Assembly (NCBI GenBank): GCA_963695545.1
Contig: OY968796.1
Location: forward strand, 3,136,001 to 3,200,000
DNA length: 64,000 nucleotides
Reading direction: 5' to 3'
Origin: Terriglobia bacterium
GTDB taxonomy: Bacteria; Acidobacteriota; Terriglobia; Acidiferrales; UBA7541
How positions within the stretch are numbered: position 1 is the first letter of the stretch; the number at the start of each line of letters is the position of its first letter. Positions 1-21,003 of this stretch are shown here, in pieces. Below the pieces are notes generated by a model. That model was not told the DNA's origin. It saw only the letters and a list, made by a program, of their open reading frames with translations, and did not search any database. The position numbers and the translations under genes are program-made.

Positions 1-1379
1 CCTGTGCCTAACAGCTTTCTGTCCAACTCCTTGATCTCGGTCTCCCGCGAAGAAATCGCCCTCATTAAAGCGGGCAGTGGCCCCTCTTGTGCCACTGCTT
101 CAGCCAGCCGTGTGAGTTCCGTCTCAACTTCAGACCTACGCACCCGAACATCATCAACCTGACCTGACATTGCCTTGAGCTGACAATCCAATTCGAGTTG
201 GAACTTGACGAGTACATAGTGAATCGCCTCTGGCTGGAGGACGGATTCCTGAAGGCCAGCCAGAAGGTACGGCTCGATTCTGTCATTTCGTTCACGTAGA
301 GTATTTGGGCAGGTGCCCCGGTTAAAGTTCAACGGACAGCCCCAACGTGGATGGTTATTCTTGCCATGCCCAGTGATGATGCGCAGCTTGCCTCCGCACT
401 CAGCGCAGACCAGAATCCCAGAAAAGAGATAATTGGATGAAGCGCTCCGCGACAATAGACCATTGGGCCTGCCCTGAGCGTAGACTGCTCGCATCCGCAG
501 CAACCGATGCTGGACCTTTTGCCAGAGTTCCGCTGACACGATCCTTAACTGCGGAGCTTCTCGAATCTTCCATTCCTTTTCTGGACGTGGCCGGGCAACA
601 CGTCGGTTCGTCCCTGGCACTTTCACAAACTTCGCTTTGTTCCAAATCACTCTTCCGACATATCGTTCGTTGTACAGCATTTCTCGGACAGCAGTTGGAC
701 ACCATCCAGCAGCCCCACGACCCTTCCGAGGTCTCGGCGACTGAACGTTCTGGGCGTTCAAAGTCTTCGCAATACGTTTCAGTGAATAACCAGACGCACT
801 GATCTCGAAAATGTTTCGCACTACGTCTGCCTCGGACTCATTTATGACCATGCGTTTCCCATCTACGGTGTCTACGCTGGCATACCCATAGGTGCGCCCA
901 CCCGTATGGCAACCGCGCAGGAAGTTTCCTTCGAGTCCACGATGAGTTTTTTTCGCCAGTTCTTTAACGTAAAGAGAATCCACCAATCCATGGACGGTCA
1001 TCTGAACGTCAGATTGTTCTGAGTGTGTATCGATCCCCTGTGAAACAAAGATGACACGCAAGCCCTGAAACCGTAGATTCTCTACCGTACTCATTGCTTC
1101 GGACTGTCTTCTGGAGAAGCGGCTTGTGTCGTCCACGAGAATTATGTCGAACGGTCTAGGGCGGGAATATGCGGCATTCAACAATCTTTGAAAGGCCGGG
1201 CGGTCTGAACCGGATCCACTAAGCCCTTCGTCAATGTAGATGTAATCGTCGAGAACATGGAATCTATTCCCTTCGGCAAACTCTCTGCATTTCCGAACTT
1301 GGTCATATGGAGAAAGGTGGCTCTGTTTATCAGTCGAGATGCGACCGTAAACAGCACACCGATTCATCGCCTCTGTCAT
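1..1379 (-). CDS. Large serine recombinase/integrase (3' end beyond window)
   Basis: Manual translation from ATG 1379/1367: MTEAMNRCAVYGRISTDKQ...DEGLSGSGSDRPAF...VDDTSRFSR...GGRTYGY...YLFSGILVCAECGGK (zinc ribbon)...coiled coil ELTRLAEAVAQ. Start and end segments share a frame; probably missing from the ORF track because there is no stop in the window. Confidence 0.92.
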   Translation of the reverse strand, partial: MTEAMNRCAVYGRISTDKQSHLSPYDQVRKCREFAEGNRFHVLDDYIYIDEGLSGSGSDRPAFQRLLNAAYSRPRPFDIILVDDTSRFSRRQSEAMSTVENLRFQGLRVIFVSQGIDTHSEQSDVQMTVHGLVDSLYVKELAKKTHRGLEGNFLRGCHTGGRTYGYASVDTVDGKRMVINESEADVVRNIFEISASGYSLKRIAKTLNAQNVQSPRPRKGRGAAGWCPTAVREMLYNERYVGRVIWNKAKFVKVPGTNRRVARPRPEKEWKIREAPQLRIVSAELWQKVQHRLLRMRAVYAQGRPNGLLSRSASSNYLFSGILVCAECGGKLRIITGHGKNNHPRWGCPLNFNRGTCPNTLRERNDRIEPYLLAGLQESVLQPEAIHYVLVKFQLELDCQLKAMSGQVDDVRVRRSEVETELTRLAEAVAQEGPLPALMRAISSRETEIKELDRKLLGT

Positions 1380-1507
1380 TCCGCCTCCAATGCGCTGCCC
1401 GCCAGCTTCTTCTGATTCAAGGAAGCAATGTACCGCTCAACAAGGATGGGAACCACCACTTCCTTAAGAAATTCTTTGACCTCTGGGCGGACTTGACGAA
1501 CTGTCAT
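1376..1507 (-). CDS. Small protein (43 aa) translationally coupled to the recombinase
   Basis: MTVRQVRPEVKEFLKEVVVPILVERYI...; its TGA overlaps the recombinase ATG (ATGA). Confidence 0.45.
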   Translation of the reverse strand: MTVRQVRPEVKEFLKEVVVPILVERYIASLNQKKLAGSALEAE

Positions 1508-2283
1508 TGAAGGCAGACGCGAAGATAGTTCTCTTTCACTCTTGGGGAGCAAGCGGTCGCAGACCGGAATCCCGGTTATAGGAAACTGCAATCCGGGGGC
1601 ATCGGCTCCACTTTCGAAACAGGTGCGTCAACGGTTATAGCGGGGGCATCGGACGTGACCTGCGTGCTTGCTGGTGAGAATGCGGCGGGCTGATCCCCCG
1701 TACCCGTAGGCTCTAATGAAGCCCCGACCAGATGCCACAAACGGGGGCTTGTGAAGATTTCTGTCCTTGCGCCGCCACGGATTCCGGGCGGGAGGACAGA
1801 ATGATGACCGCATCGGACGCGGGTATCGAGCCGGAGATGTGAAAAAACTGTTCCAAGAGGTCTGCCCTTCAAAGGTGCGCTGCGTCTGGTCATCGTGAGA
1901 TCACGTAGCTGCCCACTATCCAAATACGCTCTTTGAAAGAAAACCTGAGGTATGGCTCGCGTGACCGCAGCGATCCCGTGTAACTGAGGCTCGAAACTCA
2001 TCGAATTACAGAACTGCGCCTCGACAGACCTCAGTTAACCTGCCCGGCTGTAATTCGAGGCTAGAAAAGGTCGAATTGGCTACGCCCCGGCTTGTGCCTG
2101 TGAATTTTTTGGGCTTTTTGCAATTTTCCCCGAAACACTGCATCTATAGAGTATGTAGAAAATCGGTACTGGCGACCCTGGAGACCGCCAAACACAATCT
2201 GGAGGACGAAACCCGCTGCGCGACCGCAATTAGTGCCGCGCACGGTAGGCACTCAAGGGCACCCCCGAAGTTGGCGTGTTCCC

Positions 2284-2339
2284 GTCGCCTGTTTTGCCCC
2301 GCTCTGTAGCGAGCGGGACGAAACAGGCGACTTTTTTTT
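2284..2339 (+). terminator. Intrinsic terminator/attenuator hairpin
   Basis: GTCGCCTGTTTTGCCCCGCTC-tgtagc-GAGCGGGACGAAACAGGCGAC (21-bp stem with one G-U and one mismatch) followed by T8. Confidence 0.7.
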
Positions 2340-2391
2340 GGCATAGGACCCGACCGCGAGGCGGGCAGCCCAGTAGGAGATGAAAAAATGA

Positions 2392-3137
2392 GTGAGACAC
2401 TGGCAAGTTCTGAAGAAGATGGTGGAGGAGCCGCACAGAGCGAAGATGAATACCAACGGTGTAGTTAGGGTGGGCGGCGGTCGCGGTTTCGTCATGGAAC
2501 ACCGTGTTTACTTCGATTTCGGCGACGGCAATGGCCACAGGAAACTTTGCCGCAACGTAGTGGTCACGGCGTCGCACTGCCTGCCCCACGCGCCCAAGGT
2601 GATGTCCGGCGTTGACTACCAACGGGCGACCTACCCGAAACTGCTCGCGCCGCTCGGCGAGGAGCCTTCTGTCTGGACGCAATGTCTGTTTTTCGACCCG
2701 GTCGCGGACGTTGCCGTGCTCGGCGAACCCGACAATCAAGACTTGTCGGACGAGTGGGACGGCTATCACGCGCTGGTGAGCGGGCGCAAACCGTTCGCGA
2801 CTGCCGCGCCGGAAAGCGGCGAAGGGTACATGCTTGCTCTGGACGGTGTCGCGTGGAAACCCACTGCTCTGGAAGTCCACCTGACCATCGGGGGAACCGG
2901 GCTTTCGACGGGAGAGACGCTTGGCGGGCAGTCCGGCTCTCCGATCTTGGACAGAAAGGGACGGGCGGTCGCGCTGGTCTCGATGGGCAGTGAGACCACA
3001 AGCAACGGAGTGCGGAAGCCGATGGAACGCTGGAACGGCCGCAGCCCATCCTGAAACTCGCGCTGCCGCCTTGGCTGCTTCGAGCGACGAAGGAGCACTC
3101 GCGCAAGGTAGCTCAGCTAGCGGCGGTGCGCGGATGA
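2392..3137 (+). CDS. Trypsin-like serine protease (one frameshift near 3039)
   Basis: Triad motifs VVTASHC, DVAVL, GQSGSPIL. Adding one C at 3039-3040 gives GPQPILKLALPPWLL...* ending in an ATGA overlap with the next gene. Start uncertain (2392 or 2446). Confidence 0.75.
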
Positions 3138-3685
3138 GCCAAGCCACTCAGACACGAAAAGCACGGATTTCTGCCAAACGATCTGCTTCAAGGAACACCT
3201 CAATGCCTAAAGCACCGAATTCCGTGAGTCGCCGGGTGTTCGTCGCGAGGTTCACCGACTGCCCTGAGTACGACATCAAGCGCGGATGGTCGGCGTCAAT
3301 GGATTACGACGGCGAGACCAAGTATGAGGCTCTATTCTCATTCTTGTCTGAACACCCGAGCATCGACCCCGATTCCGTTAAGGTCGGCTGGCACAGGCAC
3401 CACAGGAGATGGGTAATCGTGCATAACCCGCGAGGACTTTCTTGCTGGCGGCTCAATGGGACGACGGAAGAGCAGGCTGTCGATGAGGCGCGTCGCTGCT
3501 GCGTAGCCGGGGAAATCGCGAGGGAGGGGTACGGCTACGTGACCGAGGGGCGAGTCCGGCTGGTGGCGAAGCTGGACGTTCGCGACCGCGACGGCAACCC
3601 GCTGTGCGTTTTCACGTGCGAGGGCACAAGCCCGAAGGCCCCGCTGACTTGGTACATGGAACACATGGGGGGCACGGATGAGTAA
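3134..3685 (+). CDS. Hypothetical protein
   Basis: ATG 3134 overlaps the reconstructed protease stop; globular-looking ~183 aa. Confidence 0.6.
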   Translation: MSQATQTRKARISAKRSASRNTSMPKAPNSVSRRVFVARFTDCPEYDIKRGWSASMDYDGETKYEALFSFLSEHPSIDPDSVKVGWHRHHRRWVIVHNPRGLSCWRLNGTTEEQAVDEARRCCVAGEIAREGYGYVTEGRVRLVAKLDVRDRDGNPLCVFTCEGTSPKAPLTWYMEHMGGTDE

Positions 3686-3840
3686 GCGTGAACCGACGCG
3701 ACAAGGATCGCAATTTTAGGAGGACAACATGAAGCAGGTATTCGAGCTGGAGAACGTCAAGATCGAGGAATTTCCGAAGAAGCGGAAGGCGGTTCCAGAT
3801 AGAAACCCGCAAGCTCCCGCATCTGCGGCTTGGGATCGTC

Positions 3841-4071
3841 CTACTCATCCTCCGGTGCTCTCATCATCTCGTCTAGATCGCTCTCACACTGCGGGCATTT
3901 CTCGTAGTCGGTCATGTTGCCGTGTTTGCAGATGCTCACCCTTCGGACGATCACAAATAGCTCCATCAATGCCGTCCGCCAGTCCTCGGTCTTGATCGCT
4001 CGGTAGATGCGCTCGTCCTTCTCCTGCCGCTCCAGCCTCTCCAGCCATGTCTGAGTCCAACTGCCTGCCAT
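3841..4071 (-). CDS. Small hypothetical protein with CKH...CPQC motif
   Basis: 76-aa ORF with a GAGGAG RBS upstream. Confidence 0.55.
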   Translation of the reverse strand: MAGSWTQTWLERLERQEKDERIYRAIKTEDWRTALMELFVIVRRVSICKHGNMTDYEKCPQCESDLDEMMRAPEDE

Positions 4072-4202
4072 TGTTGCAAGCCCTCCTCGTCCGGGTCGAT
4101 CTTTTCAGACCCTCTGTACAAAGCGTTCGGTAGCGAACTTTTGCGACATTGGCGGTTTGCCAGTATTTAGTTTTGCGACTTTCTATCTCTAGGAGAGGAC
4201 AC

Positions 4203-4511
4203 ATGAAGACAGGAAGACCAAAGCTGACGGTCTTCCGCGAGAAGTTCGCGGAGCTTGTGGCGGCAGGCTGGACGGTGGAAGCGGCAGCCAAGGCTGTGCG
4301 CATCCACCGGGCGACCGGATACCGCTGGTGCGACCAGATGGGGCTGCACGAAACGGCTGTTACCGCAAGGCGGAGAAGAAGTGACTACCGATTTCATAGG
4401 TGCGGGTGCCCAAGGGTACCGAGGGAGCCGTCTCATCTCACCCGGCCCCCTCAAATCAATCCCGCGAAAGAGATGCAGGCTCGCAACCTGAGTGGAACAA
4501 ACAATAGGTGA
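4203..4511 (+). CDS. Small HTH DNA-binding protein (3' end uncertain)
   Basis: RBS GGAGAGGA, then MKTGRPK...GWTVEAAAKAVRIHRATGYRW (HTH pattern). Confidence 0.6.
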   Translation: MKTGRPKLTVFREKFAELVAAGWTVEAAAKAVRIHRATGYRWCDQMGLHETAVTARRRRSDYRFHRCGCPRVPREPSHLTRPPQINPAKEMQARNLSGTNNR

Positions 4512-4817
4512 GATATGGACAACCGAAAATGTGAAAACATGCAGGTACCTCCAAGACGAATTCTTCCCGGGTCGGGACAAGGATAGCTGCTACCAGTGCG
4601 TCATGGATCACCCGAGGCGGAAGCGTAAGAAGCTAGAAGTGCCCGGAGTGTGGAAACGAAACGCGCAGCCTGATTATGTGGGACAACAAGCAAGACGTGC
4701 GGACCCTGCCGGGAGAAGCGTGCCGGAAACGAAGGTAAGCTCAAAGCCGAGCGCAAGGCGTTCAGGCAAGAAGCCGAGCAAGTATGGGCGCTGAGCGGAC
4801 ACCAAAAAAGCGAAGCG

Positions 4818-5989
4818 ATGAAGCCTCGGCCGGGGCGCATAGAACTTGTGCAGCACATGGATAACGTCGAGATCAAGGTCGGGCAGGACACAGTCAAGCG
4901 GGAGTTCATGATCAAGGTCACGGCGTCAATGCCGGCACGGTCAAGCCCAAGGCGCAGAAATGGCTATGGCAAAATCGTGTTCCCGCGGGTGCGATCACTT
5001 GGGGCGTCGGCAAGCCCGGCAACGCCAAGAGCCTGTGGGCAACCGACCTCGCGGCGCGTGTATCTTCGGGCGCGGATTTTCCCGATGGCGCGAAGAACGA
5101 GGGGCGCGAAGAAGGTGCTGATGTACTGCGGTGAGGACGACTGGAGCGCACCGTAGTGCCGAGGCTCATCGTCGGGGCTAACCTCGACAACATCACCCTG
5201 CTGGACAACCAATCGTTCGACGTGTTCGACAAAGAATACAACCGCGTTGACCGACGCTCCATCGACCTGGCCAAGACTGCGACACGCTGAACCATCTGGT
5301 ACACGACCACCCGGAGATCGCGCTGCTGATCCTCGATCCCACCACCGGGGTTTACGGCAGTAGAAATACAAATCACGACAAGGACATGCGCCCGATCATG
5401 AACGATCTGCGCGATATGTGCGAGAAGCGCGGGCTGACCATCGTGGGGATCACGCATACCAACAAGCGGGGGAGGCGGCGGCGATAGACCAAATCCAAGG
5501 CGCGTCGAGCATCGCTGGAGCGGCCCGCGGCGCATGGCTCTTCACCCGCGACCCTGAATCCGACGATGAGCACGCGCATGTCATGTCGTGCATCAAGTCC
5601 AACCTCAGCGACAACCATGATGGGCTGAAGCTGTTGACCAAGGCTGTGAAGGTCAATGATGAAGTGGGTGATCACCCGATGATCGTATGGGGCGAGAGCA
5701 CCAAGATGCAGGCGGACGAGGCGAACCAAGCGTTGAAGGAGAAGCGCGAGACCAAGGGCGGCAAGCGGACGCCTCCAAAATCGGCATCCTCGCGATGCTC
5801 GGCGAAAAGCCGATGCTGTCCAAGGACGTATACACCGCACTGGAAAAGCAGGGCTTCTCGGGCGAGACCGTGAAGCGGGCTGCCGCGGAACTGACCAAGG
5901 AGTTCCAAATCCATCGCAAGCAGCAAGGCGGTCGCTGGTACATGGTGTTGGCGGAGCACCTGTATGAGTTCGAGCAGAAACGAGGCTGA
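4818..5989 (+). pseudogene. AAA_25/RepA-like helicase with C-terminal winged helix, multiply frameshifted (may begin ~4381)
   Basis: Stitched frames give Walker A GKPGNAKS, YCGED, Walker B IALLILDP, IVGITHTNK, QIQGASSIAGAAR, and C-terminal MLSKDVYTALEKQGFSGETVKRAAAEL...GGRWY. Confidence 0.8.
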
Positions 5990-6041
5990 GGCAAACCCGA
6001 GGCTGTGATGGCGTTATCGGCGACGGAGGCTCTGTGAGACC

Positions 6042-6200
6042 GTCAGAAGGTCACATCTGTGTGTGTTACGTTCTGGCGTTCTGACCTTCTGAATATAATT
6101 TATATACTTTATGAAAGAAACAAAGGAGTTAGTGGTCAGAAAGCCAGAACGCCAGAAGGTCAGAAAGTCAGTGGTATCGGTCACGAGATGACCTTCTGAG
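6042..6200. repeat. Putative replication origin: G(T/C)CAGAAN octamer iterons around an AT-rich core
   Basis: 3 inverted copies at 6070-6092, AT-rich 6093-6124, 4-5 direct copies at 6135-6171, outer 11-bp inverted repeat TCAGAAGGTCA at 6043-6053/6189-6199; immediately after the helicase. Confidence 0.75.
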
Positions 6201-6947
6201 GCTTGGGCGTTTGGCGATCACATCTCGCGTGCTCTCTCAAGCTTTTTGCGGCACCACTCAGCACCAATTCCGCGACTTTCAAATCCATTTCGTGAAGCAG
6301 AGTTTTGGCAGTCCCGGCAGCATTGCTGATCTCGCCGATCACACGAAATTGCCATCGTTAATGGCAAATCGTGCTGATGCACCTTGTAACCAAGAACGTG
6401 GAGTCATGCCGAAAGCCGCTCAGAGCCGAGTCTACGGAGGAAATCTAAGAAATGCGTGCAAGACCGCAGGTGAAAACATACCTGCTCATCACCAAGCTCC
6501 AGCGCTGGGCGCGTATCGGGGCGTATCCTAGCTGTTATCCCAACTGCTCGGCGTCAATCGCCCGCCGCAACTACGCACGGCTGTACGCACGACACGAATC
6601 GTTGGCCCGCAGCATAGGGCTTACCCCAATTTCGGCTTATCCTCCGCTTTGATCCTGAGAGTCTTCGAACGATGGCATACCCACGCATGGACGAAATGGT
6701 CTGGATCGGCGGCGCTGGTGGTGGTTCCCCGGAAGGCAGATCACCGTGGAGTCGCACTTCGAGTGGAAAAACGGCAGGGCTTACCTGCTGGAACCCGATG
6801 GCACCGCCATCGAGGGAATTCTGTTTGTCGGCGAAGTCGCGTCCGATTGACGCGTCAACTCTGAGCGACCTTTCAGCGTCCGCAAGCCGAGATCAATCGT
6901 CCTCTTTTGCGTTGGCTCGATATAATGGTGGTTGGGAAAGGGCAGGT

Positions 6948-7733: not shown

Positions 7734-8061
7734 CTTTAATCCGCGCCTCCCGTGCCCAATTTGGTGTACGAGAACGTCAGCCCTGCCTGCCGGAACCTGC
7801 GTTGTGGTAGTTAGTAACCCCCAAGTGCCCTAAGTTTGTCCTACCGAAGGGCGGCTGACCTTTCACGTTTAGCATTAATAGCAGGAGACACCTTCTGCTA
7901 CCCCAGAAACGCACCCCTGAGTGGCGGCGTCAGCATTTGCTGACCGCCGAGGACTTCGCGAGGACGCTGTCGGACTCGGAGTTGTTGGAACGGTGCATGT
8001 GCCCGCAGGCGCGATCATGCCCGAGCAATTCTGTCCACTCGCGAAAATAAGAGGAAGAAAA

Positions 8062-8808: not shown

Positions 8809-9477
8809 TCACCATTTTCTTACGCGTTCGCGATAACGCCGAATGACACGCTTGCTCACTTTGCCTTCGGCATCCTCGATTAGCTCTCGCATGGAATGTT
8901 GCGCTGCAAAGCATCCATAGATTGCGTGCCTGCCCGAACTCTCGTCGATAATTCTGTGCAGTTGCTTAGCAGAGAACGGGCGAAACCCCAGCAGCCCCCG
9001 CGCTGCAATCGGGACTTCGGTCTTGAAATCGTTCGCTGCCAAGAACGCCTGAATCGCACCATCGCGGGCGATGGCCCCGAATTCCTCATTCTTGCCCGAT
9101 GCACGCAGCTACATCCCAAGCAGAGGCGTACGACGATTCTTCGTTCCATTTCAACGCTTGAATGTGGTCGATGAAGCCGTGAGGATTCTCATCGCGGTGG
9201 ATTTTGACCGGAATTATCGCTTTTCCGAGGGCGAGTGCAAACCCGGTTTCTTGGTCTGTCCAGTCTGATTCAGAGAAGGCCTTGGTAAGCAGCGGGATGA
9301 AAATGTCGCACTCGCGCAGAGCCTTTCTAATCTCGGTGCGCCAGCCGGGCAGACGGGACGGATGTCTTCGTGGGCCAGAAACGCGTCGAAGCCAAACTCT
9401 TCAAGACCCGCCTTCAGTCCTCCGGCGAGCTTTTTCGCCTTATGCGAGTAGCTTAGAAAAATGTTTAGAGGTTCCAT
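8809..9477 (-). CDS. TIR-domain protein (~222 aa after correcting homopolymer indels at ~9345-9355 and ~9095)
   Basis: IFLSYSH...AFLAHEDIRP...WRTEIRKALRECDIFIPLLTKAFSESDWTDQETGFALALGKAIIPV...PHGFI; the catalytic Glu (WxxQE) is present. Confidence 0.85.
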
Positions 9478-10369: not shown

Positions 10370-11909
10370 CAAGCTAATGGAGCGGAGGAGGAACGCCGTC
10401 GCAACTGGATCGAGATCGACAGCTTGAACGCGATCTTCAGTTGACTGCGCTCGTTCGGATACGGCAGCACTTCCCACTTGAGTGCGGCTCGTAGAATCCG
10501 TTTCGTCCGCCCGTCGCCATAAAATCCAACTGACGCTTTCCGGCTATCGTCCTTAAAGAAATCACAGCCTTCCGAGGTTAGCAGTTGTTTTTGTTGGGCA
10601 CTACTACGCTGTACCTCAGTTTTCCGAAGCGGCGATCACGGGTCAGAAGATGAACGTTTCGGGCGTCGAAGACCCTGCCATCCGGCCGCCGGAATTTTTC
10701 CGTGGGGTTCGTGAAGCCGCAAAATGACCCATTCTAACGACTGGTAAACAATTCCGAGTTCATTTCCCTTTGGATCGGCATAGGCGACGAAAATGTTGTA
10801 CCCCCCCTTTCTCATCTCTCGGCTTGCAGGCTGATCAATAAGGTAGCCGCTGAACCCGTGTGGGTTCTACCATCCGTAGAACGCCTGATTGGGTCAGCCC
10901 AACGCAGAGTGCAGCCGCGTGTGAGCGGATTACCTTCTGTGCATGCTCGGAGCCGCAGACAGACGCCTTGACCTTCGTACCAGCCGTACTGCCAAAACAA
11001 ACGCAGCCTGCAATGTATTGCCGAAGGACAAACCGTAAGCAAATTCGGAACTGCCGAGCGGACTCGCCAGCCATTCAAAGGCGACAACCAAATTGCGTGC
11101 CTCAGCAAGGGAAATCTCCTTGACGGTCGCGTTTTTGAAATCAGAGGCTAATGCCATTTTTTCGGCAAGGAGCGGATCGGGTTGTTCTGCCATACGTTCG
11201 CGGTTCACGCGCTGGAAGGCTTTGCCATTTGCTGGATAATCCTCAAAGTCTTTGGAAATTTGTTTCTCGCACTCCCCAGCGTGCTTCGCCAAGTTCCTCA
11301 AAGCAAGAGTCAGCTTCTTGGTGATCGTCGGGCTGAGCCGACTGCGAAGCTGGGTTACTTTTTCCAGCTTCTCCCTACGGCTGGCCGATTCGAGGTCGCG
11401 AATCAACTCTGACGCAACGAGATTCACGTCCGGCTCCGAAATTACGCCAGTCGGCGTGACGATCTCTCTGATCTCGCGAAGCAAGCCGCTGTAGTCAGTT
11501 CTCCGTTTTTCTCTCGCGCCTGAACGAGAGCCTTTTCAAACGTAGCATCATCAACGAGGCGCGCGATTCTCTGCCACTTCGCGCTCTGATCCTTCGATAT
11601 ACCGATTTCCTCTAGTGTGGGCGGATTGGCGGTCGGTCTGCTCGACCGCCTTTTGACTCCATCCTTACGCGGTCGTCCTTCACCCCTTGTGCCGGGGTTC
11701 TTTTCCATTTCAAGCAAGAGTTGTCCTGTCCTGCGCTCGGCACGAATTCTTATCTCCGCTGCCTGATTCTGGAGTTCAAAGTCGCCCGCCTGCTTGGCGT
11801 AAACGCGAACGGCTTCCGCTTTGTCACGGATCGCCTTCACCTCATCGACACGGTGGGCGGCGGCGAGCGCACGTCGGGCGGCGTCGTAACGAATGAGCGC
11901 GACAGTCAT
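10370..11909 (-). CDS. Mom-family (GNAT-like) DNA adenine-modification protein fused to an N-terminal helical domain; several indels, 3' end approximate
   Basis: Stitched: MTVALIRYDAARRALAAAHRVDEVKAIRDKAEA...VKEISLAEARNLVVAFEWL...YGLSFG.YIAGCVCFG...LTRGC...AATLLIS...YNIFVAYADPKGNELGIVYQSLEWSFCG...LKWEVLPYP(K). Confidence 0.72.
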
Positions 11910-11980
11910 ATTCAGAGAATTCTCTGGCAGCAAAGGACAACGTCAAGCTACGAGAGCCGTGAAGTGGTATCTTTTTCGGC

Positions 11981-13017
11981 ATGACATCGGACAGGCGCAC
12001 GGTTTTCGTAGTGGGAGCGGGTTTCTCCGCTGATCTTGAATACCCGCTTACTTCTCAACTGCTGCCCCGAGTCAGAAATCGTTTCGACAAAGCGTTTTCG
12101 ACGCAGTTTGACGAGGTGGTCAGATTTCATCACCCCGGATGGGACAGGCGACGGGCTACGCTTCCCGACATCGAACAACTGTTGACGGAATTGTCTGCAA
12201 ACGAAGAGTTGCTGCCTGCGGTTCGTTCGGACTCCCGTTCGATAGCGTTACTCTCGAACGGTTTCGGGAGGAATTGCTGCGCCTCGTTGCCGTTTGGTTC
12301 CACGAAATCCATCAGAAACGCTCTTCGGCGGGCGACAGATCATTGGATCGCTTTCTGAAGCTTATAGGCGAATCAGAGAATCCAGTGGTGATCTCTTTCA
12401 ACTGGGATTACGAGTTGGACGAAGCGTTGTTCGGCAAGAATGGCAAATCCCCAGACCTAACCCGCGAAAGTTACGGGCTAAACACGGGAAAGCTCGCGAG
12501 TCCCGCGTTGCTGAAACCACACGGATCACTGAATTGGTATCCCTCTCGTTCCGGCAAGCACATACAACGTGACTTGCGATTACGGCTGTGGAGATCATCT
12601 GGGTCGGAGCCGTCCATGTACTGTTTCATGCGATGGCGGGCGGTACGCTCGACGCAGGGACGGCGATATGTACCGTGGATTGTTCCACCGACACACTGGA
12701 AACGATTCGACCATTCGATGATGAAACACATTTGGAAGCGGTGTGTGGATACTCTGAGCACCGCTCGTCGAGTGTATTTTCTGGGTTACTCGCTGCCGCT
12801 TGCGGATTGGCATTCCAGATACATTTTTCGCTGTGGGTTCCATAATCAAATTGAAGGACTACCGCTGGCGGGTGGAGGGCGTGCGAAGCCAACCCGATTG
12901 GCAAAGGTCACGGTGGTGAACCCGGATAGCGTCGCCGTTCAGAGGATAGAAACGACGTGTGGAGTGAAAGCCCGCTGGATCGACGACACGATCAGATCAT
13001 GGCTACGATCCCGTTGA
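11981..13017 (+). CDS. SIR2-like (SIR2_2) NADase-family protein (single frameshift at 12229-12230)
   Basis: VFVVGAGFS, ISFNWD, LKPHGSLNW, IVPPT, FLGYSLP.AD motifs; adding one G joins the two ORFs. Confidence 0.85.
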
Positions 13018-13338
13018 TTGAGCGTATTTCGAGCACGATGTGTCATCGGTTTTTGCTTGTCCCTGCCCTGCGGCTGCGTCCGACCTCGATCTGCTCGCGT
13101 TTATTTAACCTATCTTCCAGCGTCACCGTAAGCTGCTGATGTCAAAGGGCGAATTTCGCCGATTTTGACAGCCCAAATTTCATCCGTTAGATGAACATTA
13201 CGGGAGCCGGGCGATGAAACCGTTTTCGGCTGAGAATAATCTTCATCTCTCTACTGCTTCGCTCGCTGGAAACTGACCTGACCGGGGTTTTTTGTACCAG
13301 CGGGAGTGAGAGAGAATTCACTCTGGAGGGAAGCTGGT

Positions 13339-13617
13339 ATGCCGATGAGGAGATACAAGCCGGAGCAGATCGTCACGCTGCTGCGGCAAGTTGAAGTTGA
13401 AATCGCCAACGGAAAGAGCACCCCACAAGCCTGCAAGGAAGCCGAGATCACCGCGCAGACCTACTACCGCTGGCGGAAGGAATACGGCGGCCTGAAGTTG
13501 GATCAAGCGAAACGCCTCAAAGAGTTGGAGCGGGAAAACGCCAAGCTGAAACGGTTGGTGGCGGAGCTTTCGTTGGAGAAGCAAATTCTGAAGGATGTGG
13601 CAGAGGGAAACTTCTAA
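13339..13617 (+). CDS. IS3 transposase OrfA
   Basis: YKPEQIVTLLRQ...QTYYRWRKEYGG...LKELERENAKLKRLVAEL (HTH + leucine zipper). Confidence 0.93.
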   Translation: MPMRRYKPEQIVTLLRQVEVEIANGKSTPQACKEAEITAQTYYRWRKEYGGLKLDQAKRLKELERENAKLKRLVAELSLEKQILKDVAEGNF

Positions 13618-14483
13618 GCCCTGAGCGGCGACGTAGCGCGGTGGAGCATGCACGCGAGAGCTACCAAGTATCAGAGCGGCATGCCTGCCGGTTGCTGGGG
13701 CAGTGGAGAGGGACACAACGCTACGAGGTGATCCACCGAACGGATGAAGACGCGCTGACGCGAGACATCGTGGCGCTGGCCAGCGAGTACGGGCGCTTCG
13801 GCTATCGGAGGATCACGGCGCTGTTGCAAGCACGGGGCTGGTATGTGGGCAAGGATCGGGTGCAGCGGATCTGGCGGCGCGAAGGGCTGAAAGTGCCGCA
13901 GGGACAAAGGCCGCGAGGAAGGCTGTGGTTGAACGACGGATCGTGTGTTCGTCTCCGGCCGGAACGAGCCAACCATGTGTGGAGCTACGATTTCGTGAGC
14001 GCGATGACCCACGACGGCCGAACACTGCGAATGCTGACGCTGATCGACGAATACACGCGGGAGTGCCTGGCGATCCGCGTGGCGAGAAGGCTGGGGAGAT
14101 ACGAAGTGATCGAAGCGCTGGCGGACGTGATGCTTTACCGGGGAATTCCGGAACATATTCGCTCGGACAACGGCCCGGAGTTCGTGGCCAAGGAGCTGAG
14201 GAGTTGGCTGGCGAAGGTGGGAACGGGGACGCTGTACATCGAACCGGGAAGCCCTTGGGAGAATGGCTACTGCGAAAGCTTCAACGGGAAATTGCGCGAT
14301 GAATGTTTGAACGGAGAGATTTTTTACTCGCTGAAGGAAGCGCAGATCGTGATCGAGAAATGGCGGATGGTGTACAACACGCTGCGTCCGCACTCAGCGC
14401 TGGGCTACAGGCCACCGGCGCCGGTGGCCTGTAGCCCCTTGGTGCCGCCAATTCTCGGTTCGCCGTCGACGGCTGTGATGTAG
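13614..14483 (+). CDS. IS3 transposase OrfB (DDE), reached by -1 frameshift
   Basis: WSYDF, IDEYTRE, SDNGPEF, PGSPWENGYCESFNGKLRDE, RPHSALGY. Confidence 0.95.
   Translation, partial: LSPERRRSAVEHARESYQVSERHACRLLGQWRGTQRYEVIHRTDEDALTRDIVALASEYGRFGYRRITALLQARGWYVGKDRVQRIWRREGLKVPQGQRPRGRLWLNDGSCVRLRPERANHVWSYDFVSAMTHDGRTLRMLTLIDEYTRECLAIRVARRLGRYEVIEALADVMLYRGIPEHIRSDNGPEFVAKELRSWLAKVGTGTLYIEPGSPWENGYCESFNGKLRDECLNGEIFYSLKEAQIVIEKWRMVYNTLRPHSALGYRPPAPVACSPLVPPILGSPSTAVM
14402..14437. repeat. Perfect 36-bp palindrome inside IS orfB
   Basis: GGGCTACAGGCCACCGGC|GCCGGTGGCCTGTAGCCC, no loop. Confidence 0.95.
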
Positions 14484-14523
14484 ACTCTCTCATTCACCGT
14501 GGTACAAAAACTCGGGCTGGTCA

Positions 14524-16336
14524 AGAGCCACGGCGGGTTGCCGATGATGAAGTCGAATTGTTGCTTCAGCATCGCGGGTCTGTAGCTGTTGCGGATGATG
14601 AACGACCAGATGGTGTTCTTCTCCTGTCGGATCAAGTCCGCCAACTTTTCGGTGAAAGACCAAAGCGCGTCAACAATCGCTGCATGCTCAAGCAGTTTGT
14701 ACAATTCGGGAACATTGACCGTCAGATACTTGTTTAGTGTCGTTCTGCTTTCCTTCTTCGATTTTGCGTGCGCCTCGGCGACCGTCGCGCAGGCGGCAAT
14801 CGCGTCGTCAAAAAGCTCCGGTGAGTGGATAAGCCAGTCCGGCATCGCGACCGTCTTTTCATTCTTCTCGCCGAACTGAATTTCGAAACCGCTCAACTTC
14901 TCGTACAGATTCTGCTCGACTTCGCGCGGAAGGAACAGCGAGTCCGCCAGATACACGGGGATGTTGACGGGCTTGCGTGCGGCGTTCACGAGCTTGCCGA
15001 GCGCGAGAACGTATGTGGCGCGGGAGATAGTAACCGCGACGGGGTGGATGTCGATGCCCTGAACCTTGCCGAGTATCATTCGCAGCTTGTCGTTGTCAGT
15101 GCCATCGGGATTGTGGTTCAGGAAGTGGTGGATCGTGGCACGCAGGAAGCTGCCCGAGCCGCAGCTTGGATCGAGCACCGCTTTGTAGCCGTGCTTCGGT
15201 AAAAGCTCGTCCACGATGCGTTCGCACAGCCAGTCGGGCGTGTAATACTCGCCAAGGTCGTGACGATCCTTGGGGTCGATCAACTGCTGGTAGACGCCCT
15301 TGAGCACGTCCTCCTTGATGTGAGACAGGTCATAGTCCGCGAGGTGTGAGAGGATGCGCTCCCACATCGGGGCGAGAATCTTCTCGGCTTCCACGCTGCG
15401 AATCCAGTGAAAGAAGTCATCATCCACGAGGTTCGCGAGCCGCTTGGACTCGAAGTAGCGACCCGAGAGCACATCCTTCGCGACCTGCCTCAGGTTCGCG
15501 GTGCTCTTGCCCTGCGACAGGGCAGCCCAAATCAGCAGCCGGGCGATGCTCGCGAGATAGGTGTGCCGCAGGAACAGGTTCTCAAGCTCGGAGATTTCCT
15601 GCGCGGTCTCTATGTCCCGCACCGCCGTGGTGTCCTCGGTCAGGCGACCGTAGGTGACGGTGAGGTACCGCTGCCACGTCTCGAACGCGAGCTTGGCTTC
15701 CGATCCGCCGCTGACCTTTGCCCACGCACGCTTGAGCGCAGCCATGCCCTCGTGGAACTGGAAGCTCTGGCTGCCGAACTCAAGCTGGAACTGCTCGGCG
15801 GTCGCCTCTACCTGCTGCTCACGAAACAGCAAACTCGTGAGCCACAGCCAAAACTCGCCCAGCGTCTCATCTGCCAGCTTGAAGTCGCTTAGTTCGTCCA
15901 GCACGACGTTCTCAGGCGTCGGCTCCTTCCCCTCGGGAAGCACGGGGCGGTAGCGAATCCAACGGCTGCCGTCCGTCGCTATCGCCAGCAGTGGACGCAG
16001 CGCGTTTCTCTTTTCCTTCTGCCAAGTCCCGGCGACGTACTCGCAAAGCTGACCCTTCGCCTCTTCGAGCGTGGCGGACAGAGACTTCTCAAACTCGATG
16101 ATGGCGTTGCCGTAGTAGGCGTCGGCGCGTCCTCTCTTCTGTCCCACCGCTTGGTCGATGCGGATCAGTTTCTCGACCCCACGGGAGAACTCGGAGACGG
16201 CGTTCGTGCCGGGGAAAAGCTCTGCGATTACGGCGGCGAAGCGCGACCGCTTGGCGGCTTCGTTGGGGAGTGTCTTGACCTCGCGGGCGTAGGCCCGCAA
16301 CGTCTCCTTGACCTTTGGCTCAAGCGTCTCAGGCAT
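14524..16336 (-). pseudogene. Type IIG-like fused restriction endonuclease / N6-adenine methyltransferase, truncated by the IS
   Basis: N-terminal GRADAYYGNAIIEFEK nuclease motif, GEYYTPDWL, VLDPSCGSGSFL, FIIGNPPWL, then the IS end; the C-terminal region is absent. Confidence 0.88.
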
Positions 16337-16421
16337 TGGCGTGAATGATAGCAGCGAGGGCAAAGAAAAGGGGTGCATCTTGCGATGCTCTTACGGCATC
16401 AGCAACTTTTCTTGTTCCGCT

Positions 16422-17892
16422 TTAGCTGGAGGCGAGTCGAAGTTTTTCTAACAGCTTTAGAAGAGCTAGCGTATCCAGAGCACAATAGTCGAGCAGAGCT
16501 TTCTGAATTCTCTCGCGCTCGCCGCCATCAAAGCAGCCGCGCAAGAGCGCCTCCCACGCCAGTCCGGCTTCCTGCCCGTTCGCAACCGTCATCCCGTCGT
16601 AGCTCATCTCAGGCACGAGAGCGGGCAGCACGGACTTGAGGCTGTACGATCCGGCGAACGCGGGGTGGTAAACATGTGCCCGCACGATGGGCAGTAGATC
16701 GAACAGGCGGTCTTGGATTGTTTTGATCTGATCCGCGAACCGAGGAAACCAAGTCGCGAGTTCCGAAAGACGCTTAGATTCGAACGACGAATACACGACG
16801 ATGCTGCCGCTTTCGCCGAGTGCAGCGCAGAGGGAGCTAATGAACTCGCGCCGAGGATCGCTGCTACCTGCGGCAAGAAACTCGTAGTGCTCTGGCTCTG
16901 CGCCCGCTTGTCGCTGCACATGGACTGACCATTGAAAGGGCAGGTGGTCGTAGGGTCGCATTCCCGCGAACGGCGGAATCGCCCGATTCAGAGTCTCGAA
17001 ATCGGCGAAGTACAACGGGTAGGTCAACCCGTCCAACAGATCGCGGAGTCCATCGCTGAACCACGGTCGTCCCGTCTGCACGCACGTCGCAGCACGGCGT
17101 TGAATGTCGCTCAACTGGAAATCGTGAGGGATGTCCCGAATTGACTCGACGCCAATCTCCTCAAGCGCATCGACCGCGCTGGCGTGGATGCGCGGCAAAA
17201 ATCCGATGTGATCCTGCGAGCGCGGCGGGTTGCAGTGATCGAAAAATTCGCAAGTGACGGGGGCGGTACAGTGCGCACCAATTTTGATGTTGGGAGGAGT
17301 CGGCTGCTCCAGAATCCGAAATTCCGACCGTAGCTGCAACGTCAGCTTGTGCTGCAACCCCTCGACTCGCCGGGCCACATTGCGGATGCGAAAGAATTCT
17401 CGCGGGTCGATTTCACCGCCCGGATAAACATAGTTTCGGTTGATGTGAGCCAGAGATGCCGAAGCCATGTCCAGCCCTGACCGCGAAACCACGCGATACT
17501 GGATCGCTACGTCTTCGAGGTGGTGATCCTTGAGATCGGTCGTTGACTTGACTTCAATCAATTTCCAGCGACCGTCGAGCCGTCGCTGTAGGACGTCCAC
17601 TTTCACGAGCACGTTCTTGTGCTCAAACACCCCCTCGAAAATCGCTGGCACGTCCGGGTTTGCCACCAGTTCGCGAGTTGCGCGGATCGCTTTGTCCAGC
17701 CTGCCGTCACTCGGAACCTCGACCCCGCCCGGAAAAAGCTGCCGGGCAAGCAAGACCGACCTGCCGCCCCTGTTCGATGATGGCTTGATCAGCAGCGTCC
17801 GGCGCGACTGCCAGTTCTGGTTCGTGGACGAGCAGATACAAACGTTTGGCGCACTGGCGGCCAGCAATAACTTTTGTTTTGCTGATTCTCAT
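16422..17892 (-). CDS. DUF2779-type RecB/Cas4-like nuclease (frameshift ~17750)
   Basis: ISKTKVIAGRQCAKRLYL, VDVL...LIEVKS, HC..PVTCEFFDHC, ADFET, LPFQWSVH, GSYSLKSVLP, YCALDT. Confidence 0.85.
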
Positions 17893-17925
17893 GTTCAAGG
17901 CTTCGAGCAGCGGCGTCGGACTGAA

Positions 17926-18267
17926 TTATGCATCCGCCCGATACGGCTTCCTATCGTCGATCAGATGAAGCTTGTACTTGTGAAATTGCGCGATGCTTGC
18001 CGGGGAACGGTCGCGCCCGCAGAAGATGTCCTTGAGTCGCGAGTCCGCGCAAGCGAGCCGCTCAAGAGCACGCCACCACAGGATACCGGGTCGCCCGGAG
18101 TCGGTCGCACCGTCCGGGCGCGAGTGGAGGAGCCGGAACTCCCTTTCGGAATTGACAAAGTCCCTGACGGCGTTCTCCACTTCCTCCGGGCTGGGGTTGA
18201 CGAACTTGACCTCGATCTCTCCATCCGGCTTGACGCTCGTCTCGATGATTTCGTCGAACATCTCCAC
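17926..18267 (-). CDS. Hypothetical protein, paralog of the adjacent gene
   Basis: GAGGAG RBS; FDEIIETSVKPDGEIEVKFV aligns with the neighbour. Confidence 0.65.
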   Translation of the reverse strand: MEMFDEIIETSVKPDGEIEVKFVNPSPEEVENAVRDFVNSEREFRLLHSRPDGATDSGRPGILWWRALERLACADSRLKDIFCGRDRSPASIAQFHKYKLHLIDDRKPYRADA

Positions 18268-18293
18268 GTCACTCCTCCTCGCAGCGTCGCCCG

Positions 18294-18623
18294 CTAAGCC
18301 TGCGCCTTGACCCTGTGCATATAGAGCAGGAGCGAGCGGAACCGTTCGTATGCTTCCGCCCGCATCTCCTTATCAGCCCACCCCTCGAAGAACATCTGCT
18401 TGAGTTTCCCCTCGGCGGCAACCGACCTGTCCTTCGCTGTCTCGTCCGCGTATGTGCACGAGAAGTACTCGTTGGCGGCGAACTCGACCATGGTCTGCGC
18501 GAGGTCGATGTCGCGGATCATCTGCTCGTCGCCGATCAGCCTCACGGTTACCGTGCCGTCAGGGGCAATCTTCGTCTCGATCTGCTCGTCGAGCGTCGTC
18601 GCGACCTGCTTGTCGTCCGCCAT
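18294..18623 (-). CDS. Hypothetical protein, paralog of the adjacent gene
   Basis: GGAG RBS; LDEQIETKIAPDGTVTVRLI. Confidence 0.65.
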   Translation of the reverse strand: MADDKQVATTLDEQIETKIAPDGTVTVRLIGDEQMIRDIDLAQTMVEFAANEYFSCTYADETAKDRSVAAEGKLKQMFFEGWADKEMRAEAYERFRSLLLYMHRVKAQA

Positions 18624-18665
18624 CTCTTCTCTTTCTCCCTATCGAATTGAGGTTCCGCTTCCTTC

Positions 18666-19203
18666 CTATACGGTGGCGTACATGTTCCGGCGAATCCAGC
18701 GGCTCAGCAGCACCAGCAGCACCGGGGCAAATACGAAGAACGGAGCGATGGCGAACACCAACGCCGCACTCTCGGGGTTGAGACTGCTGAGGCGTTCGGG
18801 AAACACCTTACCGAGTCCAATCGCGAAAATAACTTCGGCGGCGACGGAGCCGATGAAACCGCTGACCATGAACCAAATCGACTTGGCGAGCGTCTGCCAC
18901 ATACCGCCGTGGTCTTGACGCCAAGTGCTCAGCTTTCCCGCTCGCTGCCACTGCCGGACGCTGTGCCAATGGCAGATGAAGACCATCCAGATCGCGCAGG
19001 CAAGCGGTCCCGGTAAGGAAGTAGAGCACGCCCCAAATCCGCATATCGGCACCGCTCAACGCGAGAGCCTCGATGCCGACTGTAAAAAGAAGAGGAGCCG
19101 ATAGTCCAAACATGAGCAGGGTGAGTAGGAACAGGATTTCCGACAGCACCCATTTCAGGAATTCGCGGGCTGTTCCGGCGATGTCGATAACCATTGGCTC
19201 CAT
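18666..19203 (-). CDS. Multi-pass membrane protein (frameshift ~19020)
   Basis: Two overlapping hydrophobic ORFs (18808-19203 and 18666-19052); GGAGG RBS. Confidence 0.55.
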
Positions 19204-19257
19204 GGACGTTTCCTCCGGTACGAGACCCCTTCGCGATAGTTCTGGCGTCGGAAGATG

Positions 19258-19896
19258 TCAGGCGCATGCAGCCGTAGCGTGCTGAGAACGGGCAGCGGCG
19301 TACACAGTCCCAACTGACAGATTCATTTCGTTGGCTATCCACCGCCACGAATGCCCGGAGGCTCGCAGTGAGTTGATCCGGTCAACATCGACAGCTTTTC
19401 TCGGTCGCCCGAGGCGTTTGCCCTTCGCCCTAGCATTTCGCAATCCTGCCCGCACGCGCTCAACTATCGTCTCTCGCTCGCTTTCCGCTACCGCTGCGAG
19501 AACGTGAAAGACAAATTTGCCTGATGGAATCGTCGTATCAATTTGCTCGATCATTGCCACAAAATTGATCTTCAGCGCGTGAAAGGTCTCAAGTGCTCGG
19601 CACAGGTGTGAAACTGAGCGCGAAAAACGGTCGAACCGCCAGACGACGACCACGTCGAATCTCCGCGCATGAGCATCCGCCATCAAGCGATTCAGTTCGG
19701 GTCGGGAATCCTTCCTGCCCGAGACGCCCTCGTCCACATAGCAGTCAAAAATATCCCAGCCCCGTCGCTGACAGTACTCGCGCAGTTCTCGTGTCTGCAT
19801 CGCCGAGTCTTGCCCGTGACCTATCGTCGAAACCCGAGAATACACGGCAGCTTTGATCTTTTGCGGGCCGCAATCGCGAACAACCTGCAATCCCAT
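19258..19896 (-). CDS. Small serine resolvase/invertase with C-terminal HTH
   Basis: VYSRVST, DEGVSGRKDSRPEL, VWRFDRFSRS, ERVRAGL...GKRLGRP, SWRWIANEMNLSVGTV. Confidence 0.92.
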   Translation of the reverse strand: MGLQVVRDCGPQKIKAAVYSRVSTIGHGQDSAMQTRELREYCQRRGWDIFDCYVDEGVSGRKDSRPELNRLMADAHARRFDVVVVWRFDRFSRSVSHLCRALETFHALKINFVAMIEQIDTTIPSGKFVFHVLAAVAESERETIVERVRAGLRNARAKGKRLGRPRKAVDVDRINSLRASGHSWRWIANEMNLSVGTVYAAARSQHATAACA

Positions 19897-20063
19897 CAGG
19901 ACTCCCTTCGTACCCCAAACTGTTTGCCAAACCCGTTCAAAAACCCTGCGCGGGGCGTTCCGGGCGACGCTCTACTCTCCCGTAGACCTGATCCCTTCTG
20001 GTGAGCGTAGAACCGCCCAGAACGCCCCGACGAAGGCTGCTCATTTGCTCTTGGAATCGTCCT

Positions 20064-20315
20064 TCATCGCCTGCCCGCCTTCTGCTGCTCGTGCGCCTTT
20101 CGCAACGTCTCATCGAAGCATGCTTCGCACATGCCGCCAGTCTCGCCGCCGTCGCCTTGCGTAAATCGGTGAGCACAGGAAGGGCACCTGAACTCGATTC
20201 CGGTCGGAGGTTGACCTTGACCGTTGGGATGGAGCGGGACAGCCTCCGTTCCGCACCGAACGCACTTCTCGCCGAGAACTTGCTGGCACTGCACACAGAT
20301 GCGAGTCACGCGCAT
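20064..20315 (-). CDS. Small zinc-finger protein
   Basis: 83 aa with four CxxC motifs (CVQC, CVRC, CPSC, CEAC). Confidence 0.65.
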   Translation of the reverse strand: MRVTRICVQCQQVLGEKCVRCGTEAVPLHPNGQGQPPTGIEFRCPSCAHRFTQGDGGETGGMCEACFDETLRKAHEQQKAGRR

Positions 20316-20457
20316 CCCCGAATGGTGCCGAAGAACCGGGTGGGACTTGCGATTGCTGGCGAGGTTCCGAATGAAAACAGGGGCGTGAATGCGAGCGGAC
20401 AGACGACTGTTACAATTCGAGCAGCCATTGCAGCCTCCAGTTAGGTTGCTGTGGTCA

Positions 20458-20491
20458 GGGACGACCCGGTGTATCAGCACCGGGTCGTCCC
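20458..20491. terminator. Perfect 14-bp hairpin after the RHH gene
   Basis: GGGACGACCCGGTG-tatcag-CACCGGGTCGTCCC; no long U tract. Confidence 0.5.
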
Positions 20492-20493
20492 GC

Positions 20494-20637
20494 TTATTTC
20501 AATTCTTTGGCTCTTTCCTGAAGGTACTTATCAATCGCACGCCGGATCAGTTCGGCAAGCGGAGCACCCGTCTTATCGGATAGCTTTTGCAGCTTCTCAA
20601 TCTGCTCTTCTTTAAGGAAGAGGGCCGTACGCTTCAT
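20494..20637 (-). CDS. CopG/ribbon-helix-helix regulator (47 aa, not in ORF track)
   Basis: MKRTALFLKEEQIEKLQKLSDKTGAPLAELIRRAIDKYL is a classic RHH pattern. Confidence 0.85.
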   Translation of the reverse strand: MKRTALFLKEEQIEKLQKLSDKTGAPLAELIRRAIDKYLQERAKELK

Positions 20638-20990
20638 AGGCATACATATTACCATACAGATGCATACATGTCCATAGGCCGGAAGTACTGGCGTACTTTG
20701 AGGTGCGAAAGATTGGGTTTTGGAACATCTTTGGAACAGCTAGGATGATAGGAAACGAGGGGGTTCATTGCGGCTTAGCGCAGCCTTTGCACCATCCACT
20801 TCCGGGAGCAGCGGTCAGAAGGGCGAACCCGCGAGGGCAGTTCTTGCTTTGGGGTGGACTTTCCGGAATTCTTCAGTATGGGTCGGAGCACCGTCTTCGA
20901 ACGTGATAGTTGGCAGAACTCCTATGAAGAGCGCAACTTACCAACAACTTGTACCTAAACGGCAAAACTAGCGCGTTCAGTGCGTTGCAA

Positions 20991-21003
20991 GCCCCCGCAA
21001 CCA
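20991..21003 (+). other. Putative att site: duplicated 3' end of tRNA-fMet
   Basis: GCCCCCGCAACCA matches the typical initiator-tRNA 3' end including CCA; no T-arm or cloverleaf upstream; terminator directly downstream. Confidence 0.7.

Follow-up and report, generated by a model that had tools for sequence, protein, structure and literature searches.

A serine recombinase gene that crosses its own attachment site at tRNA-fMet, and a possible tail-swap control, in an integrative element of a Terriglobia bacterium

We analyzed a stretch of 64,000 nucleotides of a Terriglobia bacterium, hereafter the window, which spans contig positions 3136001-3200000 of a one-contig 4.16-Mb genome (G000:C1). 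Its left part belongs to a 21.25-kb integrative element, hereafter the island, which combines a phage-type replicon (a helix-turn-helix (HTH) gene, an AAA_25 helicase with a C-terminal winged helix (wHTH), and an iteron-type origin) with defense cargo, apparently inserted by a large serine recombinase (LSR) at the CC of the 3' end of tRNA-fMet. Since the reading frame of the LSR continues across the attachment (att) site of the island into the antisense of the tRNA, recombination swaps the tail of the enzyme. The tail of the excised form bears marks of coding sequence across relatives, and it may act as an ssrA-like degron.

The original prediction, made from the letters of the island alone, had expected a tRNA-fMet and an att copy just left of the window. 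Both are present, and the att sites lie where they had been placed. An intact tRNA-Met(cat) is found at G000 3135676-3135752 on the plus strand, 324-248 bases left of the window, with a C1:A72 mismatch and three G-C pairs in the anticodon stem, the features by which initiator (fMet) tRNAs are recognized. On the same strand, the last 12 bases of this tRNA have a second copy only at window 20992-21003. This puts 21,251 bp between the att cores, and the insertion restores the tRNA's 3' end. The GC content of the island is 0.567, against 0.600 and 0.603 in the flanks. The encapsulin gene to the right of the distal core (attR) is present in only 1 of 30 relatives; hence, synteny of this flank does not confirm the right end. 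The confirmation came from a hairpin just past attR that resembles the tRNA terminator of two genomes of the same genus, G002 and G005, where the site is unoccupied and the terminator lies directly 3' of the tRNA. Both island junctions can thus be read from the sequence. The features at these junctions are as follows (window positions, strand):

1..1379, continuing 292 bases beyond the left edge to G000 3135709, minus: LSR gene, 556 amino acids (aa), with Resolvase, Recombinase, and Zn-ribbon domains
20873..21003, minus: frame that becomes the C-terminal tail of the LSR on excision (from translation), 43 aa, with an LxLPF motif and an end that is not Ala-Ala (AA)
20992..21003, plus: attR core, repeating the last 12 bases of the tRNA (sequence match)
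21020..21057, plus: displaced native terminator hairpin of the tRNA (folding z -3.9)

The LSR gene faces the tRNA, passes through the proximal att site (attL, G000 3135741-3135752), and stops within the antisense of the intact tRNA-fMet, a feature that the original prediction had not mentioned. As the attP site of the free element falls in the last codons of the LSR, the integrated gene receives an end made of antisense tRNA (here a VAG motif followed by 10 tRNA-antisense residues), and the excised gene receives a tail whose codons lie at the opposite end of the element. A terminator-like hairpin lies on the strand opposite the end of the gene (G000 ~3135767-3135790), with a folding z of only -1.9. 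The structure predicted by AlphaFold has long helices past the zinc ribbon. In models of the integrated form and of a natural relative with a non-tRNA tail, both built from shallow alignments, both tails have a confidence score (pLDDT) below 50. We also observed that the last 14 codons of the integrated LSR message (L001 11709-11752) are complementary to mature tRNA-fMet and face its transcription, a possible source of antisense damping.

The same antisense tRNA-Met peptide ends 73 of 81 LSR homologues, a count that is biased by the inclusion of the tail in the query. Among 150 representatives matching the full LSR profile, and judging by pattern, 34 end in the antisense tRNA-Met peptide, 27 in the version read in the other frame, and 7 in a tRNA-Phe version. 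Within 400 genomes of the class, 26 carry the LSR (E<=1e-60). The 20 loci obtained from 28 match rows include 10 that adjoin tRNA-Met or its 3' part, 7 that adjoin tRNA-Phe, and 3 that adjoin neither (31-34% identity). The loci at tRNA-Phe(gaa) (L039, L040, L041, L043, L049, L051) represent a sister LSR clade with the same layout of a gene running through its att site. Both ends could be mapped for seven other tRNA-Met elements, of 10-51 kb. We found no attR in the flanking DNA examined for G293, G301, G135, G416, and G180, and that of G309 is tentative; as for the tRNA-Phe elements, three gave no attR.

Serine integrases are expected to have attP arms that are inverted repeats, unlike those of attB. 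In the eight mapped tRNA-Met elements, the attP arms form inverted repeats that center on a CC, with 16-22 matches out of 26 in six of them and 14 and 10 in the other two, and the attB arms are not inverted (5-10/26). This asymmetry places the crossover at the CC and ties the LSR to the site, so that CC is the probable crossover dinucleotide.

In the tail of the excised form, all eight mapped tRNA-Met elements encode Lx[IL]P[FY] in the frame of the LSR, about 10-18 codons past the core. Five of these tails end in Ala, including three that end in AA. In G066, the core is read by the LSR in a different frame, in which the motif is also found. In G257 (L036/L073), the cassette is flipped: the LSR occupies the far end, where its reading frame leads outward into host DNA, and the tail motif lies right behind the tRNA. 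The tails of G066 and G257 were considered as decayed, a view that we rejected as they are variants of frame and orientation. Metagenome loci L168 and L171 also have the flipped cassette. The tRNA-Phe elements have a different target and frame; two of their tails end in AA, and a third, tentative one runs on.

A pattern scan of metagenomes gave at least 118 stretches with the P arm, 114 of them distinct after dropping duplicates and those with fewer than 150 flanking bases. The pattern fixes the first 7 codons of the tail, and about 9 codons overlap the att arm. Among the matches listed, 110 of the 114 tails close within 100 codons; 22 of these 110 end in AA, 43 end in Ala, and 86 are 14-30 aa long. 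The corresponding numbers of AA ends in the other two frames are 2/106 and 3/101, against 130/18747 (0.7%) in shuffled sequences and 38/2073 in ordinary open reading frames (ORFs) of the source genome. The terminal AA is encoded by all four Ala codons and followed by all three stops. In 10 related tails, the differences at codon positions 1, 2, and 3 number 157, 81, and 256, favoring the third. These comparisons suggest that the excised-form tail is a coding sequence across relatives.

LSRs with a tail of this kind occur in nature. In viral contigs, 6 of 13 matches have an LSR that continues in frame into a tail not derived from a tRNA, and the integrase of Rhizobium phage RR1-A has a similar end after VAG, terminating in VA. 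These may correspond to excised or tandem forms. Among related LSRs without a recognized tRNA-antisense end, AA terminates 10 of 82, and 9 of the 27 that exceed 590 aa. This suggests an ancestral tag that is now removed by integration. The source genome has clpX, and its tmRNA tag ends in LALAA.

Considering these data, we propose that the tail of the excised form functions as an ssrA-like degron for ClpXP, such that the free-form integrase would be short-lived and the integrated form stable, a proposal to which we give an even chance. In the free circle, the tail-tagged integrase would leave a brief window for integration and little opportunity for re-integration after excision, which would give the element time to replicate and transfer. 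Integration would strip the tag and leave a stable integrase awaiting a directionality factor. A second element arriving at the same tRNA would hand its own tail to the resident integrase, and could lock the resident in. Work in E. coli, in the part of the study that concerns us, describes the terminal Ala-Ala as critical for ClpXP degrons (PMC10862746), and in mycobacteriophage BPs integration is described to strip such a tag from the repressor (PMC4557955). With its att site within the gene, the LSR would have a free form with an ssrA-like end in many relatives, and not in the present island.

Several observations weigh against this proposal. The tail of the present island keeps the motif, runs for 43 aa, and lacks the terminal AA, by error or decay, and none of the other seven elements has less symmetric attP arms (10/26 here). 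No terminal AA is found in 88 of the 110 metagenomic tails among the matches listed or in 5 of the 8 mapped ones, and a single one of the 6 in-frame forms from viral contigs has it. The AA counts are not independent, since the tails ending in AA form about four related groups (by eye). The part kept in all eight elements is LxIPF and not AA, which suggests a role beyond that of a degron. A terminal AA is also described as insufficient by itself for degradation (PMC10862746, in the passages on these ends). In-frame tails not derived from a tRNA can arise from tandem integration instead of excision. Finally, no excision or empty-site junction was identifiable in short-read contigs (4 runs of one study, with a depth of ~0-4 over most of the stretch), which extended from 600 bases outside the left edge of the window to position 19399 within it, short of attR.

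In the main rival reading, the tail is a catalytic or directionality switch more than a degron, where LxIPF would complete, or dock on, the C-terminal or coiled-coil region. Only the excised form would then integrate efficiently, and the integrated form would be damped or biased toward excision. We find this reading doubtful. The LxIP[FY]-type motif is present throughout the mapped elements, tracks the frame and orientation of the LSR, and lies outside the 26-bp att arm, and the scarcity of AA ends in the mapped elements (3/8) also favors such a switch. In the Mx8 integrase, replacement of the tail reduces activity, as summarized in part of PMC4701971, and McMurdie et al. considered in their account of the DsiB integrase (PMC3146451) that it is possibly fully functional only on the circle. 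Yet, a directionality switch leaves the enrichment of AA in two target clades unexplained, and the motif varies between distant tail groups. The degron and the directionality switch are compatible and can both hold. We consider it improbable that the swap has no regulatory use, the clade having an ancestral constitutive AA degron, the att site having drifted into the end of the gene, and tail loss on integration being a tolerated by-product. The AA ends of LSRs without antisense-tRNA end fit this, as do integrated tails that are whatever the antisense tRNA yields in its two frames. Against it, the layout persists at two different tRNAs and in two frames as well as two orientations, and the tail has remained coding at a distance of 10-51 kb from its gene.

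Placing the att site inside a serine integrase gene has precedents. The closest is DsiB of the Dehalococcoides ssrA islands (PMC3146451), described as a serine integrase of ~540 aa that faces its target RNA gene, with a 3' end overlapping attL and a stop outside the island, like the present LSR. The module also includes a Mom homologue next to a second, small serine recombinase, and its authors suggest regulation. It differs by its target, ssrA, and by a C-terminal region called divergent; the passages on the module describe neither a conserved excised-form tail nor a degron, and list no helicase/iteron replicon. The order of the modules is also different: the six-gene synteny at attL (dsiB, dsiA, RecF-like, ParB, Mom, and a 700-aa gene) given there is absent from the present island, where the small resolvase and a weak Mom-like piece lie 9-18 kb away and no ParB match was found by Pfam or PHROGs. 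The streptococcal rumA integrative and conjugative elements (ICEs) also have att inside a serine integrase gene, and their excised form differs in length and C terminus, like that of the present LSR; they are conjugative, target a protein-coding gene, and are presented without mention of a degron in the relevant part of PMC4701971.

Other systems are more distant. In BPs, as described in the sections on its switch (PMC4557955), it is the repressor gene that is split, and the tag of the integrase itself is retained, whereas here the integrase itself would lose the tag. Myxophage Mx8 and the archaeal suicidal integrases are described with attP inside the integrase gene, which is split on integration in the SSV type (passages of PMC4701971, PMC4383910, and PMC8371274). 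These are tyrosine recombinases in which 112 residues are replaced (Mx8) or the gene is split, whereas here some 10-25 terminal residues change and the Pfam domains stay intact. The Islander database paper states, in its section on targets, that serine integrases are not known to target tRNA genes (PMC4383910). Our literature search revealed nothing on tRNA-targeting LSRs with a conserved swapped tail or degron, although TIGER tables and supplements (e.g., that of PMC10083194, whose main text never uses the word tRNA) may list such sites. Hence, att sites inside serine integrase genes are known from DsiB and the rumA ICEs, and the tRNA-targeting, degron-swapping form is the part that we did not find in the literature.

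The rest of the island was annotated with Pfam (42 ORFs and 16 pieces), PHROGs (41 reading-frame pieces), and PADLOC, with the following results (window positions, strand):

2392..3054, plus: trypsin-like peptidase ORF (cargo), Trypsin_2 match slightly under the cut-off (E 1e-5)
4203..4511, plus: small HTH gene upstream of the helicase (Pfam, PHROGs), common to two tyrosine-integrase islands
4510..6034, plus: AAA_25 helicase with C-terminal winged helix, frame-broken in several places (pieces compared with intact relatives of ~520 aa)
6043..6199, no strand: iteron-type origin, inverted CAGAA arrays around an AT-rich core (repeat count)
8809..9477, minus: TIR-domain gene, frame-broken (Pfam, PADLOC)
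10372..11933, minus: frame-broken phage-type gene or genes, with an N-terminal phrog_33995 match and a weak Mom-like piece at 10639-10866 (PHROGs, Pfam)
11981..13017, plus: SIR2-like gene, frame-broken, with weak family matches (Pfam, PADLOC)
13286..14515, plus: insertion sequence of the IS3 family, with 9 near-identical copies in the genome (Pfam, genome search)
14511..16378, minus: type IIG restriction-methyltransferase cut by the IS3, 616 of 1100 profile positions (profile match)
16422..17867, minus: DUF2779/RNase H-like nuclease ORF (Pfam)
19258..19896, minus: small serine resolvase, with 63-64% identical genes inside LSR elements of G325 and G149
20497..20739, minus: reading frame with a ribbon-helix-helix (RHH) regulator (PHROGs, Pfam)

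These scans bear out the earlier description of an integrative element at tRNA-fMet that is driven by an LSR, lacks capsid genes, and combines a phage-type replicon with defense cargo. No capsid, portal, large terminase, or tail match was found by PHROGs among the 41 reading-frame pieces, and no relaxase or type IV secretion system family by Pfam among the 42 ORFs and 16 pieces. The island also lacks a coupling protein in the Pfam scans, and so does not qualify as an ICE. An Rfam scan of positions 1-26000 gave nothing but a chance miRNA-type match on the origin hairpin. Divergent small regulators had also been proposed: one HTH (at 4203) and one RHH (~20497-20739) have family support, and the others do not. 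The HTH gene is a candidate regulator or directionality factor. The region at 16-21 kb, previously suggested as a possible second accreted module with its own resolvase, contains no internal copy of att; we rejected this module for want of a boundary, and the recurrence of the small resolvase inside two other LSR elements suggests that it is better regarded as a companion gene of the LSR, like DsiA beside DsiB.

The origin has 9 CAGAA/TTCTG units in 200 bp, where 0.66 are expected per 230 bp, and a 39-bp core with 18% GC; a similar design is found behind five related helicases. No primase domain was detected in the replication module. Intact helicase relatives, up to 94% identical over a 100-aa query, tile the pieces of the window across the frame changes. 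Over the C-terminal half, these pieces are 75-100% identical to an intact relative, with short gaps instead of stop codons. The helicase is found in 5 of the 400 class genomes, at low identity, and its close relatives amount to three genome loci and three viral loci (two of them near-duplicates). Where the flank was examined, the relatives lie near tyrosine integrases, at tRNA-Ser (L236, L238) or tRNA-Arg (L233). In L233 and L235 the replicon lies upstream of terminase and portal genes, with a capsid gene in L233, and in L236-L238 there are no structural genes within the DNA examined (at most 10 kb downstream of the replicons). Some 130 nt before the helicase start (window 4385-4515) are ~97% identical in L236 and fall inside a 92%-identical stretch of L238; the helicase of L238 shares only 35% identity with the query of the family. 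These 130 nt are possibly a regulatory leader. A structured RNA is not supported, as folding gave a z of -1.05 and the 3 sequences compared had no compensatory pairs.

VirB/VirD4 conjugation genes are present in 4 of the 7 other mapped elements with this LSR cassette: G264 (42 kb), G115 (47 kb), G370 (50 kb), and G257 (51 kb). The remaining three carry a DnaA_N-type gene with NACHT and restriction-modification (RM) cargo, a DUF927 gene with a type I RM system, or a Rep-like gene. These contents were read from ORFs of at least 110 aa, and from a selection of ORFs in the case of G370 and G257. In addition, a patatin and SMODS pair (CBASS-like) is present in G115, and G264 has arsenic-resistance-like genes. 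A six-frame search for the helicase of the window gave no match in any of the seven. We therefore rejected the LSR as a marker of one element family, given its presence on conjugative elements, and the idea of an undescribed satellite family defined by LSR, helicase, and origin is not supported by its relatives. The LSR cassette and the helicase-origin replicon travel separately, which makes the element a mosaic with a PICI-like layout, i.e., that of phage-inducible chromosomal islands.

This layout raises the question of whether the island is a true phage satellite (of the PICI, PICMI, or VEIME type) packaged by a helper phage, which we put forward as a tentative reading, somewhat short of probable. 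The succession of integrase, regulator, replicase, origin, and defense genes without structural genes is shared, as far as the published descriptions go, with these satellites and with tycheposons, and the same replicon recurs at three other loci without capsid genes (L236-L238). Parts of PMC9618062 and PMC10803314 report satellites that lack capsid genes and satellites that use serine recombinases. In terms of PICI components, the island has an integrase, an AAA_25-wHTH helicase and origin (the gene being frame-broken), and, in place of a regulator homologous to AlpA, MerR, or Stl, generic HTH matches only. This makes at most 3 of 5 core components, a class treated as unreliable by its authors in the passage that defines it. 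The 41 pieces gave no match to the PICI capsid-morphogenesis gene, and the Pfam and PHROGs scans revealed no family of the P4-like psu-delta-sid operon, alpA, or the alpha primase-helicase. The sole match of a packaging class is that of the HTH gene at 4203-4511 to a profile of the terminase small subunit (terS), over the HTH only (E 9.6e-6, 35 of 166 positions). Set against the PICI-type satellites as described, the island lacks a capsid-morphogenesis gene and a convincing terS or AlpA match; no packaging site or hijack gene has been shown, and 21 kb is larger than most P4-like elements. The support from related replicons is also bounded by the length of downstream DNA examined. Tycheposons have tRNA targets, including one tRNA-Met, and integrases described as facing inward and as mostly lineage-specific tyrosine recombinases, whereas the present integrase is an LSR that faces the tRNA; 910 of the 937 elements of that study, in the part giving these counts, use tyrosine recombinases. 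A prophage-like region near 3.40 Mb of the genome (G000:C1 ~3393000-3413000, L241/L242) has large terminase and major capsid matches, an IS3 copy inside, and mostly ORFs without PHROG match; it is a candidate helper, but nothing links it to the island. Transfer would most likely proceed via a helper phage or another passive route.

It is less probable, and in our view unlikely, that the island is what remains of a defective prophage, deprived of its late genes and now carrying decaying cargo. The helicase and origin do occur in tailed phages (L233 and L235), the IS3 cuts the RM gene, whose distal part is lost, and frame breaks affect several genes of the island, including those of the helicase and the TIR, SIR2-like, and Mom-like proteins, against only 2 with frame changes among 69 genes compared elsewhere in the genome. 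The frame breaks and the IS3 truncation had escaped the original prediction. However, both att ends, the LSR, and the origin are intact, capsid-less versions recur in other genomes, and the C-terminal half of the helicase keeps its 75-100% identity to an intact relative, with short gaps and not stops. Some of the frame breaks are probably assembly errors, because two short-read contigs without substitutions each show one gap over an inferred break. The truncation of the RM gene by IS3 is real decay, and this copy of the island may be impaired.

A few observations concern the surroundings of these elements. An encapsulin and Dyp peroxidase pair (window 21194-23099) lies immediately right of attR, in a flank that may be older accreted DNA. 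Several relatives repeat a short piece of the tRNA-fMet 3' end, a mini-insert or scar, 130-410 bases past the tRNA: L012 (3831/4227), L023 (3356/3765), L028, L031, and L033. G016 has an orphan C-terminal fragment of an LSR (L021 18081-18380), 67% identical and fused to a degenerate tRNA-fMet copy. A dispersed repeat of 150 bp occurs upstream of the GGT gene near G000:C1 3133000 and at at least 8 other sites, and is multi-copy in same-genus genomes too.

The main weight of these results lies in the integrase cassette and not in the satellite reading, the island being a modest satellite candidate. Serine integrases are major tools of genome engineering, and the present ones form a widespread tRNA-targeting clade whose att sites can be mapped, in an initiator-tRNA 3' end that is near-universal. 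We suggest, with some reserve, that a broad lineage of tRNA-targeting LSRs (at tRNA-fMet and tRNA-Phe; in ICEs, phages, and capsid-less islands) self-regulates by swapping a degron tail, with newcomers tagging the integrase of the resident. If this is true, the antisense-tRNA peptides of database proteins would be real ends, the excised-form enzyme would be largely missing from annotations, and mining integrated genomes would clone only one of two enzyme forms. Tagging by newcomers would drive the build-up of tandem islands. If the tail swap controls the stability or the activity of the integrase, directionality control would be built into recombination itself.

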